64,000 bases of DNA, from sequence record PZ452595.1, one strand, 5' to 3'. This document shows, one piece after another, positions 46,400 through 49,451 of the stretch (its first letter is position 1; each line of letters starts with the position of its first letter). Both the position numbers and the translations under genes were made by a program. The notes beneath the pieces were generated by a model. The model saw nothing but the letters and a program-made list of their open reading frames with translations, searched no databases and was not told where the DNA came from. Source of the DNA: a phage.

Positions 46400-46406
46400 C
46401 AACTTT

Positions 46407-47090
46407 TTATCGTTTTGTTGGAAGAGACAGAGGATCGCATTCTTCCTCTGACGGAGCATCTTCAAGACCCATAGCGTATCGCAAAGCATACTTCATCATC
46501 AGGATGTCTTTCGCACAGTCATGAATAGAATCATGTGCAACGAATCCATCTAAGGTTCCCTTTGGAAGAGGACATGTGGTCATATCACGAACAAGCAGAA
46601 GTGCTTCAATTCTGGTACGAATATCACGCTGATTCCAGAATTTACACGGTTCTAACTTAAATGTGTCAAGCTCATTCTCAGAAACACCATTAAGACGTTG
46701 AATATCACGAATGAGATCGACTAAAATTGGAAAATCAAACGACATTCCGCGACACCAGCCTTGAGATTTCCAAGGATCGATATTATGTGCATTGATGTAA
46801 TCATTAAATTTTGTAATACCATCGATAGTGCTTACATCTTCATCTGATGGTGCAATATTTTTTCTAGCTTCAGGAGATTGATTTTTCCACCATTCGATAG
46901 TGCTTTTAGTAAAAAGACGATGTCCTTTTTGGCTTTTTAAATCAAATTTGATTTTAATGCCACGTGAAACTAATTCATCAAACGTTTCAACTACTTCTGG
47001 ATTAGGGTCAAAAGCAATTACAGCCAAATCAATAACAGCTGCTTTTTCACCGCTTCCCATTGTTTCAAAATCTATAATAAAATCAAACAT
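46407..47090 (-). CDS. dexA: exonuclease A (DEDDh 3'-5' exonuclease)
   Basis: 227 aa, MFDFIIDFETMG... with DEDD acidic motifs; same length as T4 DexA. Confidence 0.88.
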   Translation of the reverse strand: MFDFIIDFETMGSGEKAAVIDLAVIAFDPNPEVVETFDELVSRGIKIKFDLKSQKGHRLFTKSTIEWWKNQSPEARKNIAPSDEDVSTIDGITKFNDYINAHNIDPWKSQGWCRGMSFDFPILVDLIRDIQRLNGVSENELDTFKLEPCKFWNQRDIRTRIEALLLVRDMTTCPLPKGTLDGFVAHDSIHDCAKDILMMKYALRYAMGLEDAPSEEECDPLSLPTKR

Positions 47091-47347
47091 TAAATTTTCC
47101 TCGCTAAATCACGAATTTGATCTACAGTATAGTCTTGAATATAAACTTTATTGATAGGCTCATCAATAAATTTTGCCATAGATTCAATGTCTTTTTGTAT
47201 TTCTTCAAGACTGTATACTATCTTTAAAGCTTTTTCGCGAATAGTAATATTTTCAGGACCCTGATTTTCTTCAATGACAGCTTTAACATTTGTCATAAGA
47301 GATTTAAATTGGTACCAACTTAATTCAATCATTAATAATCGCCTCAT
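47090..47347 (-). CDS. hypothetical protein (dexA.1 position)
   Basis: 85 aa, ATG start overlapping the dexA stop region. Confidence 0.5.
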   Translation of the reverse strand: MRRLLMIELSWYQFKSLMTNVKAVIEENQGPENITIREKALKIVYSLEEIQKDIESMAKFIDEPINKVYIQDYTVDQIRDLARKI

Positions 47348-47585
47348 AAAGATAGCTAATTTCGCCTAAAACATAATCATTAATTGTAACAGTTTTCACT
47401 TCACCACAAAAGAATTCTAACGCAATTAAATCTCGTTCAATTTCTTCTAATTGAAGCATCAACTTACTAGATTCAATTTTTACAGTTTCACGATTTTTAC
47501 CATGAGCAATTTCATAAATTTCGCTAACTTTATCCTGAAGAAGATAAAACTGATCTTTAGTTATTTCCACGAATAGCTTCCTCAA
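47325..47585 (-). CDS. hypothetical protein, paralog of the preceding ORF; start uncertain
   Basis: Track start is TTG; a GTG at 47570 preceded by GAGGAAG is the more likely start; shares MR-L…QF…LEEI…DY pattern with 47090..47347. Confidence 0.4.
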   Translation of the reverse strand: MRKLFVEITKDQFYLLQDKVSEIYEIAHGKNRETVKIESSKLMLQLEEIERDLIALEFFCGEVKTVTINDYVLGEISYLYEAIIND

Positions 47586-47817
47586 ATTTAATTAGTAATT
47601 TACAGACACTTTCATCTAGTGTAATTACCGTATCTGTATTACTGTGATATGATTGTTTTTCAATTCGTTTAATTGCTAATATAGTATCACTTATAAGATA
47701 AAGCTTATGAAGGAGCTCAGCTCCTGTTACCATAACATTAAGATTATCTTGCTTATTAGTATGCTTCCTTATACCATCTATTAGACGATTTAAATATTTT
47801 GAATTGATGTTAATCAT
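47557..47817 (-). CDS. hypothetical protein
   Basis: 86 aa, ATG start; same size class as the two preceding ORFs. Confidence 0.5.
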   Translation of the reverse strand: MININSKYLNRLIDGIRKHTNKQDNLNVMVTGAELLHKLYLISDTILAIKRIEKQSYHSNTDTVITLDESVCKLLIKFEEAIRGNN

Positions 47818-47823
47818 ATATCC

Positions 47824-49143
47824 TCACACATAAAACACATCATAACGACCACGAGTGACACCTACATAAAGAAGTTGCTGAGCTAATTCAGCATCTGCAT
47901 AATGAATACAAGGCGTATAGATGAAAGCACGGTCTACAGACATACCCTGTGCTTTATGGAATGTTGATGCAGGAAGTGCTTTCACTTTACTAAACTGTGA
48001 TTTAGCATCCCAAAAATCACTCCATGGAGCTTTTCCGCCTTTGTTCCAATTTTTATAAGTTTCTGCTGTTTTACCTAAAAATAGGTTAAACTTATACAAT
48101 TCTTCATCAGATGAAATTATTTTAATCTTTTCACGATAATATTCATCATCGCCGTAAGTTTCTACTGTTAAATCCCAATGACGAATTAAGTATTCTCCTG
48201 GAACACCACGAGCTTTAACAAACGTTGATGTATACTCTGCTTCTATAATACGAACTAACTGTCCGTTATTAAAAATAATTTCTGACACAGGCTTTCCATC
48301 AATTTTATATGTTTTAATTAATGGTTCCTGCATTACAATAATTTCACCGACAATAAAATCTTTATCGGTTTCAAAAATCTTTTTACGAATAATGCTATTT
48401 AACTTGTCAACAGATTTATTCGTAAATGCCATTACGCGATTTTCAAACAAATCATCTAGTGATTTTACGATTGAAAAATAATTTACCATAAAATCACGTA
48501 AAGCAGTATCACCAGTAAATCCACGTACTCCATGCCCGTCAACAACTTTGTCATAAATCCACTTACCGTTGCGAACGTCAGTAGCTACATCAATAATAGG
48601 AGCATTACTGCGTTTAACTTCAGTAAGTTCACACTGATAAAAATCTTTATGTGTAAAGAATGGACTGATATAAGCACTGTTTTCTCCTGGGTCAACAGGT
48701 CTAATTTGCTTATTATCGCCTATTCCAATTATAGTACACCAAGGTGGAATAGTTGAAAGCAGAATTTTAAACAGCTTTCTATCATACATTGACACTTCGT
48801 CACAGATTAATACTCTGCATTTAGCTAAATCTGGTACTTCCTTCTGCTCAAAGAGGACATTTTCTTCATATGTTACCGGGTTAATTTTAAGAATACTATG
48901 AATAGTACTTGCTTCTTTCCCTGATAGTTTTGAAAGAATCTTTTTAGCTGCATGAGTAGGAGCTGCTAAAATAATACCAGTTTCACCCGTAGATATTAAA
49001 GCTTCAATGATGAATTTGGTAAGAGTAGTCTTACCGGTGCCAGCAGGTCCATTAATAGTTACATGATGTTTCTTTTCTTTAATAGCCTTCATAACAATGT
49101 TAAAGGCATTTTTCTGGCCTTCGGTCAAATCATCAAATGTCAT
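47824..49143 (-). CDS. dda: Dda DNA helicase (SF1B)
   Basis: 439 aa; Walker A GPAGTGKTT, DE box LICDEVSM; same length as T4 Dda. Confidence 0.95.
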   Translation of the reverse strand: MTFDDLTEGQKNAFNIVMKAIKEKKHHVTINGPAGTGKTTLTKFIIEALISTGETGIILAAPTHAAKKILSKLSGKEASTIHSILKINPVTYEENVLFEQKEVPDLAKCRVLICDEVSMYDRKLFKILLSTIPPWCTIIGIGDNKQIRPVDPGENSAYISPFFTHKDFYQCELTEVKRSNAPIIDVATDVRNGKWIYDKVVDGHGVRGFTGDTALRDFMVNYFSIVKSLDDLFENRVMAFTNKSVDKLNSIIRKKIFETDKDFIVGEIIVMQEPLIKTYKIDGKPVSEIIFNNGQLVRIIEAEYTSTFVKARGVPGEYLIRHWDLTVETYGDDEYYREKIKIISSDEELYKFNLFLGKTAETYKNWNKGGKAPWSDFWDAKSQFSKVKALPASTFHKAQGMSVDRAFIYTPCIHYADAELAQQLLYVGVTRGRYDVFYV

Positions 49144-49451
49144 CGTAAATTCCCTGCAATTGGTATACTAACAATACGCCCAGTATCTAAAATTCGCTGA
49201 TATAATCTTTGTGTGTCTACGTCAGGCTTAACATGTTTAACTTCTATTTTATTAAACCAAAACTTACGTGGAGTCTCAACTAATCTTGGAATTCCCTTAC
49301 CTAAAGCTAGTCGATACTGTTCTTTAAGAGTAGTAAATACTTTATCAGCAATCTTCCATTCAAAAAATACAGCAGGACGATGTTCATCAAGCGGAACTGG
49401 CGCCGTAAATCCGTCTTTGTCTCGGTAAACTATCGCATATACATAAACCAT
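49140..49451 (-). CDS. hypothetical protein (dda.1 position)
   Basis: 103 aa, ATG start, stop overlaps dda start. Confidence 0.55.
   Translation of the reverse strand: MVYVYAIVYRDKDGFTAPVPLDEHRPAVFFEWKIADKVFTTLKEQYRLALGKGIPRLVETPRKFWFNKIEVKHVKPDVDTQRLYQRILDTGRIVSIPIAGNLR

Follow-up and report, generated by a model that had tools for sequence, protein, structure and literature searches.

Tandem small genes between dda and dexA of a Tequatrovirus: the paralogs dexA.1 and dexA.2 and a probable third family member

Organization of the dda–dexA locus

The window analyzed here, a stretch of 64,000 nucleotides, derives from a phage of the genus Tequatrovirus with 98% identity to phage Ge15; 554 T4-like records match. 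Three tandem open reading frames (ORFs) had been noticed upstream of dexA in a preliminary description of the sequence, and these do exist, each of them on the minus strand; in their maximal forms they comprise positions 47090..47347 (ORF1, 85 aa), 47325..47585 (ORF2, 86 aa) and 47557..47817 (ORF3, 86 aa). Both dda and dexA are encoded on this strand too, and the slot between them contains all three ORFs. ORF1 is dexA.1 and ORF2 is dexA.2 of phage T4. The genes of the locus are as follows, with the start codons adopted in the next section:

49140..49451, minus strand: homolog of T4 dda.1, 103 aa; its position matches the T4 annotation
47824..49143, minus strand: dda, Dda SF1 helicase, 439 aa, directly upstream of the array (Pfam SH3_14, 2.7e-70, and AAA_19/AAA_30; phrog_325)
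47557..47817, minus strand: ORF3, 86 aa, pI 8.8, 'hypothetical protein' (phrog_4967, 9e-59), a probable third and very diverged family member that T4 lacks
47325..47570, minus strand: dexA.2 (ORF2; y00H of T4), 81 aa, pI 4.4, T4/KMB22 annotation (phrog_1700, 6.4e-49; homologs 84-99% identical carry PF26837)
47090..47332, minus strand: dexA.1 (ORF1), 80 aa, pI 4.9, T4/KMB22 annotation (phrog_1700, 2.4e-42; homologs 86-95% identical carry PF26837)
46407..47090, minus strand: dexA, exonuclease A, 227 aa, next after the array (Pfam Rv2179c-like, 1.3e-22; phrog_255, 2e-91)

An assignment of ORF3 to dda.1 was rejected, since in T4 dda.1 lies upstream of dda and encodes 103 aa; in the T4 annotation, dexA.2 directly follows dda. 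A single middle-phase transcript extends in T4 from dda.1, as its first gene, to dexA.1 (bioRxiv 10.1101/2024.04.04.588121). Scans of the locus for sigma-70 promoters and terminators returned chance-level matches only, and a search for MotA-box-like patterns gave no site where the T4 dda.1 promoter would be expected. The T4 neighbourhood of the slot includes the host-modifying genes srd, modA, modB and motB. Spurious antisense ORFs of 30-84 aa are also found in this AT-rich genome.

Start codons, Shine-Dalgarno sites and overlaps

Each of the three ORFs is preceded by a GAGG Shine-Dalgarno site:

47822..47825, minus strand: GAGG of ORF3, with a 4-nt spacer to ATG 47817; it overlaps the dda stop codon TGA (47826..47824) and is annotated as ribosome-binding site in Ge15
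47580..47583, minus strand: GAGG of dexA.2, within TTGAGGAAG, spaced 9 nt from GTG 47570; the site falls within the final codons of ORF3 and is annotated as ribosome-binding site in Ge15
47342..47345, minus strand: GAGG of dexA.1, within ATGAGGCG, spaced 9 nt from ATG 47332; the site falls within the final codons of dexA.2

The real start codons are ATG 47332 for dexA.1 and GTG 47570 for dexA.2, giving products of 80, 81 and 86 aa for dexA.1, dexA.2 and ORF3, respectively. The 80-aa and 81-aa forms are those annotated in T4 and in most records; GTG 47570 fits, furthermore, the N-terminal ends of every family member and the modified residue K5 reported by mass spectrometry, and the phrog_1700 match begins at residue 6 of the long dexA.2 ORF. 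The long forms of 85 and 86 aa (starts at 47347 and 47585) were rejected; the upstream ATG 47347 is not conserved (ATA in G28 and ESh18), the codon at 47585 is TTG, and annotation favours the short forms.

The preliminary description needs revision on these points. A GTG start with a strong Shine-Dalgarno site does exist for the second ORF, at 47570 behind the GAGG at 47583..47580, but not at 47585; the equal size of 85-86 aa applies to the maximal ORFs only; and the overlaps of 14-23 nt given for consecutive members mix two sets of values, as the real starts yield 14 nt (ORF3/dexA.2), 8 nt (dexA.2/dexA.1) and 1 nt (dexA.1/dexA) and the maximal ORFs 29 and 23 nt. The motif described as shared by ORF1 and ORF2 reflects a real similarity (0/5000 shuffles), but its 'MR(R/K)L' part is artefactual, arising when the Shine-Dalgarno sequence (A/T)TGAGG, which precedes the real starts, is translated in frame; this part of the motif is therefore not protein sequence.

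Throughout the array a start overlaps the upstream stop, with GAGG 4-9 nt before every start, and the stop codon TAA of dexA.1 shares 1 nt with the dexA ATG (TAATG). This arrangement is the layout of a putative translational coupling down to dexA.

Paralogy of dexA.1 and dexA.2

Judged from their sequences, dexA.1 and dexA.2 are true paralogs that trace back to the single gene occupying the slot in most related genera. A Smith-Waterman alignment of the two proteins scored 86, compared with a shuffle mean of 28.8 (sd 5.5), i.e. z=10.4, with 0/5000 shuffles reaching this score and a Gumbel p of ~1e-6. Profile alignment of the two families with hhalign gave E=1.4e-6 at 28% identity over 75 columns, and the two have PF26837 and a match to the same Dhakavirus protein in common; the initial proposal that at least two of the ORFs are paralogous is thus borne out by both the pairwise and the profile comparison. 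BLASTP with default statistics reported no alignment in any pairing of the three ORFs, and, taken alone, would have spoken falsely against kinship; this null result was rejected as a verdict on paralogy, since Smith-Waterman alignment with shuffles and hhalign clearly detect the kinship of ORF1 and ORF2. The membership in PF26837.1 is a precomputed annotation on homologs 84-99% identical; the local copy of Pfam-A does not include that model, and its scan gave no match for the small ORFs.

A word-indexed protein search with these ORFs returned close relatives only, and an exhaustive HMMER search of 1.84 billion proteins with a DexA.1+DexA.2 profile matched nine clusters, ORF3 not among them. 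Conservation within Tequatrovirus is 84-99%, with an invariant C-terminal half of DexA.1, and identity between genera is 28-44%.

That the ORFs are short and the genome AT-rich, with antisense ORFs of 30-84 aa that are spurious, could be taken to indicate chance ORFs in AT-rich intergenic DNA rather than genes. We give this reading practically no credence: DexA.2 was detected by mass spectrometry in T4-infected cells with 70% coverage, the ORFs are intact across hundreds of genomes, their variation falls mostly on third codon positions (7/7/18 and 12/6/22), and confident AF2 models as well as the GAGG sites before each ORF point in the same direction.

Presence and affiliation of ORF3

About 310 of some 500 Tequatrovirus records carry ORF3 intact, and alignment of the DNA delimits the segment in which it lies:

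47595..47826, minus strand: 232-nt presence/absence segment with ORF3, missing in T4, G28 and ESh18, with TGA microhomology at its bounds

Both forms of the indel retain a dda stop codon and the dexA.2 Shine-Dalgarno site, and the indel length of 232 nt is near that of one repeat unit (238-247 nt). On this alignment, ORF3 is a cassette-like presence/absence polymorphism inside Tequatrovirus.

ORF3, for which the preliminary description noted the equal size only, is probably also a third, very diverged copy of the dexA.1/dexA.2 family, as suggested by low-scoring profile matches and by predicted structure. The model phrog_5263 (77 positions), which probably represents the single-copy homologs of other Tevenvirinae, was matched in hmmscan by ORF2 with 2e-7, by ORF3 with 1.4e-5 and, weakly, by ORF1 with 0.012; residues 1-81 of ORF3 align colinearly to positions 1-74 of the 77. 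A family HMM built from six genera without ORF3 scored ORF3 at 17.0 bits, colinear from residue 1, with 0/5000 shuffles scoring as high. On a narrower family profile, 1/3000 shuffles scored higher than ORF3, which was the best of 122 ORFs of the window after DexA.1.

Alternatively, insertion between dda and dexA.2 may have brought in ORF3 as a small helical gene of unrelated origin, which would resemble DexA.1 and DexA.2 through convergence of small amphipathic helical bundles. Consistent with this, pairwise comparison of ORF3 with DexA.1 and DexA.2 gave no significant similarity, and hhalign against shallow family profiles, whose members are all >84% identical, gave no link (E 0.19-0.25); hhalign against the family assigned a probability of only 18%, and the single shuffle that outscored ORF3 on the narrower profile belongs on the same side. 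ORF3 has no phrog_1700 match, its homologs are without PF26837 annotation, it is absent from the matches of the exhaustive search, and its charge is opposite (pI 8.8 versus 4.4 and 4.9). We regard an unrelated origin as unlikely, in view of the full-length colinear match to phrog_5263, the score on the broader profile, the hhalign P of 0.0013, the rank among real ORFs of the window, the common slot, strand and size, the near-unit length of the indel, and the predicted structures described below.

Predicted fold and residue conservation

The AF2 model of DexA.2 (pLDDT 94, pTM 0.80) comprises E2-4, H5-24, H28-55, E60-62 and H65-79, and that of ORF3 (pLDDT 82) comprises E2-5, H6-22, H26-54, E64-67 and H69-84; the latter model derives from a shallow alignment of 5 sequences, and 3/5 models had pLDDT <65. 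The strands and helices thus occupy almost identical residue ranges in the two predictions, and the fold they share is predicted to be a compact β-α-α-β-α three-helix bundle. In Foldseek, the ORF3 model matched DexA.2 of BECP11 (prob 0.99, TM 0.69/0.73) and a Cronus protein (TM 0.78/0.87) that is also matched by the DexA.2 model, and the BFVD match lists of the two models overlap heavily; these likenesses argue for kinship of ORF3 with the family.

A search of the PDB by fold gave no match with E <1, and a search by sequence nothing significant; NCBIfam models gave chance-level matches only (ESAT-6, 0.013; MinE, 0.031), far below their cut-offs. Six columns are invariant across genera (M1, F8, L11, L41, D65, I71), and conservation is confined almost entirely to positions of the hydrophobic core.

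Possible functions

Product names such as 'exonuclease', 'dextranase' and 'tail sheath stabilizer' in GenBank, RefSeq and UniRef would make the ORFs enzymes. These names are the only indication of this kind; they track the gene symbols (dexA.2 to 'dextranase', dexA.x to 'exonuclease') and vary arbitrarily among records. No nuclease or glycosidase domain was matched in Pfam/NCBIfam at E<=1, the proteins are of 80-86 aa only with no conserved polar catalytic set, and they have no structural relative among solved enzymes, so that an enzymatic role is hardly conceivable. Since the fold is without solved relative and without catalytic-looking residues, we infer that the small proteins would be non-enzymatic and would act by binding another macromolecule.

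We lean, by a modest measure, towards the interpretation that the array represents three diverged copies of one small (~9.5-kDa) family whose members serve the neighbouring DexA exonuclease and/or the Dda helicase as stoichiometric partners, accessory or regulatory, because one to three small ORFs always lie between adjacent dda and dexA in the genera examined. Duplication and divergence, into acidic DexA.1 and DexA.2 and basic ORF3, could then have produced variants with altered partners. Against an accessory role, ORF3 is dispensable in nature, as T4 lacks it, synteny is weak evidence for a functional link, because Tevenvirinae genomes are colinear throughout, and in Aeromonas phage Aeh1 dexA and dda are separated. 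A literature search on dexA.1, dexA.2, dda.1 and PF26837 found no functional study, DexA.2 being only stated to be uncharacterized.

A role as host-takeover or anti-defence effectors is a possibility to be taken seriously, if with somewhat less than even confidence: the proteins would bind host proteins and merely reside in the slot, with no link to Dda or DexA, and an arms race would drive their changes in copy number and their fast divergence. The gene 39-56 region of T4 is non-essential, and the host-modifying genes nearby fit this possibility, as do the copy number of 1-3 between and within genera with ORF3 polymorphic inside Tequatrovirus, the fast divergence between genera, and the confinement of the family to few clusters among the proteins searched. 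In published work, the CBASS enzyme Cap2 conjugates cGAS to K5 of DexA.2 in T4 infection; the same work describes numerous further targets, and the conjugation may be promiscuous. The position and the dexA overlap are kept across distant genera, including that of Acinetobacter phage Acj9, and this, together with the high conservation within Tequatrovirus and the invariant half of DexA.1, argues against effectors that only happen to occupy the slot.

In a more elaborate and quite improbable variant, the slot would be a diversifying cassette site for one binding-protein fold, with 1-3 copies that come and go through unit-length indels and members acting in counter-defence; DexA.2, for example, would be a decoy that soaks up cGAS conjugation by Cap2, and basic ORF3 would extend the target range in about 60% of Tequatroviruses.

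Significance

The finding is largely ordinary and of little weight by itself: T4 annotations have listed dexA.1 and dexA.2 for decades, and the common Pfam family already implies that the two are kin. What is added is the unnamed third ORF, which occurs in most Tequatroviruses but not in T4 and probably belongs to the same family, so that the slot would hold an array of 1-3 copies; furthermore, the starts are corrected to ATG 47332 and GTG 47570 and the MRxL motif is explained. Nothing supports the widespread product names 'exonuclease' and 'dextranase', which ought not to be carried forward. A confident predicted fold without solved relative, in a conserved helicase–exonuclease slot, makes these proteins a reasonable small target for interaction and deletion studies.

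Comparison with known systems

AsiA, Arn, Dmd and similar T4 proteins are small, non-enzymatic and non-essential, are made early or in the middle phase, and act by partner binding. In contrast to this general likeness, no sequence relationship to such proteins was found for the present family, and no PDB fold match with E <1.

The closest counterparts are dexA.1 and dexA.2 of T4, which are the orthologs of ORF1 and ORF2 (~94-96% aa identity) with the same position, order, strand, starts (ATG, GTG) and 8-nt overlap; the locus differs from that of T4 in the presence of ORF3 between dda and dexA.2, and otherwise in nothing of substance.

In every genus examined in which dda and dexA are adjacent, 1-3 small ORFs (71-92 aa) lie between them. 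Sequence or predicted fold assigns most of these to the family, and the ORF nearest to dexA usually overlaps its start. The slot holds one small ORF in Dhakavirus, CC31, Gelderlandvirus and Moonvirus, two in CkP1, T4 and Acj9, and three in the present phage. Tandem pairs in the same slot are p022/p021 of Acj9 (92 and 71 aa) and CkP1_0015/0014 of Karamvirus. The Acj9 pair shows at best marginal sequence similarity to the family (E=0.023 and 1.4); the BFVD models E5EPF6 and E5EPF5, which we tentatively equate with p022 and p021 from their lengths and adjacent accessions, match the DexA.2 model (prob 0.87-0.94, TM 0.60-0.67). CkP1_0014, the second small ORF of CkP1, gave no sequence match to the family HMM (0.9 bits). 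In Aeromonas phage Aeh1, dexA is not beside dda, and a search of the first 22 kb gave no family member; fold relatives (Q76YD5/Q76YD6) occur elsewhere in that genome, and others come from Cronus, Henu6 and phiAS5.

The single-copy homologs of Tevenvirinae are of 79 aa in Dhakavirus (VR5, WG01, Bp7), 77 aa in Gelderlandvirus (S16, NP4, CGG4-1), 76 aa in Moonvirus (Merlin, Moon) and 80 aa in Karamvirus CC31. They share with the array the slot, strand, size, overlap with the dexA start and conserved core positions, with z=10-22 to DexA.1 or DexA.2, and differ from it in copy number, one versus three, and in an identity of only 28-44%. The single 79-aa gene of Dhakavirus matches both dexA.1 and dexA.2 (z=20-22 and 13), and its product is DexA.2-like at the N-terminus and DexA.1-like at the C-terminus, as would be expected of an unduplicated relative.

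Locus organization

The interval 46400-49150 of the window shares 98.2% identity with Escherichia phage Ge15 and has matches in 554 T4-like phage records. Three small ORFs are located between the dda and dexA genes (the dda-dexA slot).

Genes of the dda-dexA region (long/short starts for ORF2 and ORF1)
49143..47824, minus strand, dda (Dda helicase)
47817..47557, minus strand, ORF3 (unnamed)
47585/47570..47325, minus strand, ORF2
47347/47332..47090, minus strand, ORF1
47090..46407, minus strand, dexA (DexA exonuclease)

The annotations of the T4 reference and of phage KMB22 list ORF1 as dexA.1 (80 aa) and ORF2 as dexA.2 (81 aa); T4 is without a counterpart of ORF3, and its dexA.2 directly follows dda. 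The T4 gene dda.1 was ruled out as the identity of ORF3, as it is a separate gene upstream of dda (window 49451..49140). The three tandem ORFs and the shared motif of the preliminary description are real; their strand, start codons, overlaps and N-terminal motif are corrected here. Variable sites of the small ORFs cluster at third codon positions, in support of coding. Plus-strand ORFs of 31-84 aa antisense to dexA, dexA.1 and dexA.2 (46900..47154, 47117..47227, 47151..47264, 47274..47369 and 47451..47576) are unannotated in all related records inspected, and probably arose by chance in AT-rich DNA.

The T4 genes dda.1-dda-dexA.2-dexA.1 are carried on one mainly middle-phase transcript with a single detected start site (bioRxiv 10.1101/2024.04.04.588121). 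In the window, a MotA-box-like TGCTTTA, with TAAATT behind it at the spacing of middle promoters, is found within dda (48480..48505, minus strand), ~660 nt upstream of ORF3; the pattern is enriched across the whole window (34 matches; 19 ± 4 in shuffles), as is expected in a T4-type phage.

Start codons and gene overlaps

The codon at 47585 is TTG, and the GTG start proposed for ORF2 is present at 47570. In both genes the upstream start-like codon overlaps a GAGG, i.e. TTGAGG (47585..47580) and ATGAGG (47347..47342), followed 9 nt later by GTG 47570 and ATG 47332, respectively; hence, the 'M-R' of MR(R/K)L is a Shine-Dalgarno (SD) sequence read in frame, and not part of an N-terminal protein motif. 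Several observations support the downstream starts over 47585 and 47347: phages G28 and ESh18 have ATA in place of ATG 47347; the TTG of T4 is positioned 6 nt past the dda stop codon without an SD of its own; the phrog_1700 match on long ORF2 begins at residue 6; family members of other genera all start at the aligned position, with M-(I/Y/F)-x-(L/I/V)-(T/N/S); most database records give lengths of 80 and 81 aa (dexA.1, dexA.2); and the opening β-strand of the AlphaFold2 model of DexA.2 (residues 2-4) pairs with β2. Furthermore, a proteomics study detected T4 DexA.2 (gene y00H) at 70% coverage and placed a remnant of cGAS on K5, as numbered in the 81-aa sequence, which would fit an N-terminus at the GTG, the modified peptide itself being unlisted. 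With these starts the overlaps, proposed to be 14-23 nt, are 14, 8 and 1 nt. An SD (GAGG, 47102..47099) precedes dexA, and every junction, including that of dexA, has the layout expected for translational coupling.

Paralogy of dexA.1 and dexA.2

Pairwise BLASTP among the three ORFs returned no alignment for any pair. For ORF1 and ORF2 this result is a false negative, since their Smith-Waterman score (BLOSUM62) was 86 (shuffle mean 28.8 ± 5.5; z=10.4) and was reached by 0 of 5000 shuffles (Gumbel p ~1e-6), and hhalign of their family alignments gave E=1.4e-6 over 75 colinear columns with 28% identity. Homologs of both also have PF26837 in common, as assigned in precomputed Pfam annotation, the model being absent from the Pfam copy searched. 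The Dhakavirus phages VR5, WG01 and Bp7 have one 79-aa gene in the slot, whose product matches both DexA.1 (z=20-22) and DexA.2 (z=13), with a DexA.2-like N-terminus and a DexA.1-like C-terminus. Together, these comparisons identify ORF1 and ORF2 as paralogs from one ancestral gene, and the proposal that at least two of the three ORFs are paralogous is borne out for this pair.

Occurrence and affiliation of ORF3

ORF3 is found in ~310 phage records, all Tequatrovirus-like, and dexA.2 of the Tequatrovirus type in ~500. T4, G28 and ESh18 differ from the window by a clean indel of 232 nt (47826..47595), which accounts for the presence or absence of ORF3; it has TGA microhomology on its flanks, and its length is near that of one gene unit (238-247 nt). 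With or without the segment, a stop codon for dda and the SD of dexA.2 are retained; the last 11 codons of ORF3 correspond to the dda-dexA.2 spacer and dexA.2 5' end of T4.

Direct comparison of ORF3 with DexA.1 and DexA.2 gave nothing significant, and an exhaustive profile search of 1.84 billion representatives yielded only 9 clusters, ORF3 not among them. Homology is suggested by several independent profile and structure comparisons. The profile phrog_5263 matched ORF3 over its full length (E=1.4e-5), DexA.2 (2e-7) and DexA.1 (0.012). Against a broad profile of 13 slot occupants from six genera, with ORF3 left out, ORF3 scored 17.0 bits, colinear from residue 1, and 0 of 5000 shuffles scored as high (maximum 15.4); with a narrower profile it scored 11.9 bits (reached by 1 of 3000 shuffles) and ranked, after DexA.1, top of 122 real window ORFs. 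hhalign gave P=0.0013-0.0017. The AlphaFold2 models share the order of elements, i.e. β2-4, α5-24, α28-55, β60-62 and α65-79 in DexA.2 (pLDDT 94, pTM 0.80) and β2-5, α6-22, α26-54, β64-67 and α69-84 in ORF3 (pLDDT 82, pTM 0.71; shallow alignment). Foldseek against BFVD matched the ORF3 model to 76-92-aa proteins of T4-like phages (Cronus, TM 0.78/0.87; CC31; Henu6; Aeh1) and to DexA.2 of BECP11 (prob 0.99, TM 0.69/0.73), largely the same set as for the DexA.2 model. ORF3 is thus quite likely a member of the DexA.1/DexA.2 family, with the caveat of its shallow-alignment model.

Aberrant database entries

In phage ime09 (NC_019503.1, 664-1143; window 47570..47090), dexA.2 and dexA.1 are fused into a 159-aa ORF by a single-base deletion (GTTATTAATG to GTT-TTAATG), a fusion that is either genuine or the result of a sequencing error. 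This record explains the two-part layout of the 160-position profile phrog_1700 (ORF2 matches 1-80, ORF1 77-159) and the 159-aa BFVD entry G1FHL1. The DexA.2 variant P0104 (81 aa, from the representative library) has essentially only G-to-A differences, read on the coding strand (E>K, D>N, V>I, A>T, C>Y, R>Q/K); it would seem to be assembled from reads converted by bisulfite or a deaminase, and not to be a natural homolog. P0063 (141 aa) and P0065 (112 aa) combine the C-terminal half of DexA.1 with unrelated N-terminal sequence (in P0063, methyltransferase domain PF02384); they are probably chimeric assemblies on very short ENA contigs (639 and 618 nt).

Putative function and product names

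No functional study of the family was found in the literature; DexA.2 is described as an 'uncharacterized 9.5 kDa protein' and as a target of cGAS conjugation by the CBASS enzyme Cap2. The small proteins had no enzyme-family match in Pfam or NCBIfam, and searches of the PDB by fold and by sequence gave no solved relative. The positions invariant across genera (M1, F8, L11, L41, D65, I71) are core residues; DexA.1 and DexA.2 are acidic (pI 4.9 and 4.4), whereas ORF3 is basic (8.8). We infer that all three are small binding proteins. The preferred, though tentative, reading is that they would assist or regulate DexA and/or Dda as partners, since the position persists and dexA is overlapped. A role directed at the host, in takeover or anti-defence, is the main rival and about as probable.

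The RefSeq name of DexA.2 is 'dextranase', many records name both DexA.1 and DexA.2 'exonuclease', and the T6 homologs are named 'tail sheath stabilizer and completion protein' and 'tail assembly protein'. The names 'exonuclease', 'dextranase' and 'tail sheath stabilizer' are unsupported, and product names of homologs of window 47090..47570 have been propagated without basis.

Comparison with other T4-like phages

In Aeromonas phage Aeh1, dexA does not adjoin dda, and no family member was found in the first 22 kb. In the other phages compared, the slot is occupied by one to three small ORFs.

Small ORFs between dda and dexA
One: Dhakavirus, Karamvirus CC31, Gelderlandvirus, Moonvirus
Two: T4, Karamvirus CkP1, Acinetobacter phage Acj9 (92 and 71 aa)
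Three: this window

The Acj9 lengths are those of the BFVD matches E5EPF6 and E5EPF5, and among the small ORFs the 92-aa protein scored best with the family HMM (E=0.023). In Citrobacter phage CkP1, a second ORF (2634-2864, 76 aa) lies between CkP1_0015, itself a family member, and dexA, whose start it overlaps. This ORF has no sequence similarity to the family (0.9 bits); it is a copy of extreme divergence or else an unrelated gene in the slot. Genes dexA.1 and dexA.2 are already known and annotated, and the only thing newly added is ORF3, absent from T4, as a probable further member of their family.
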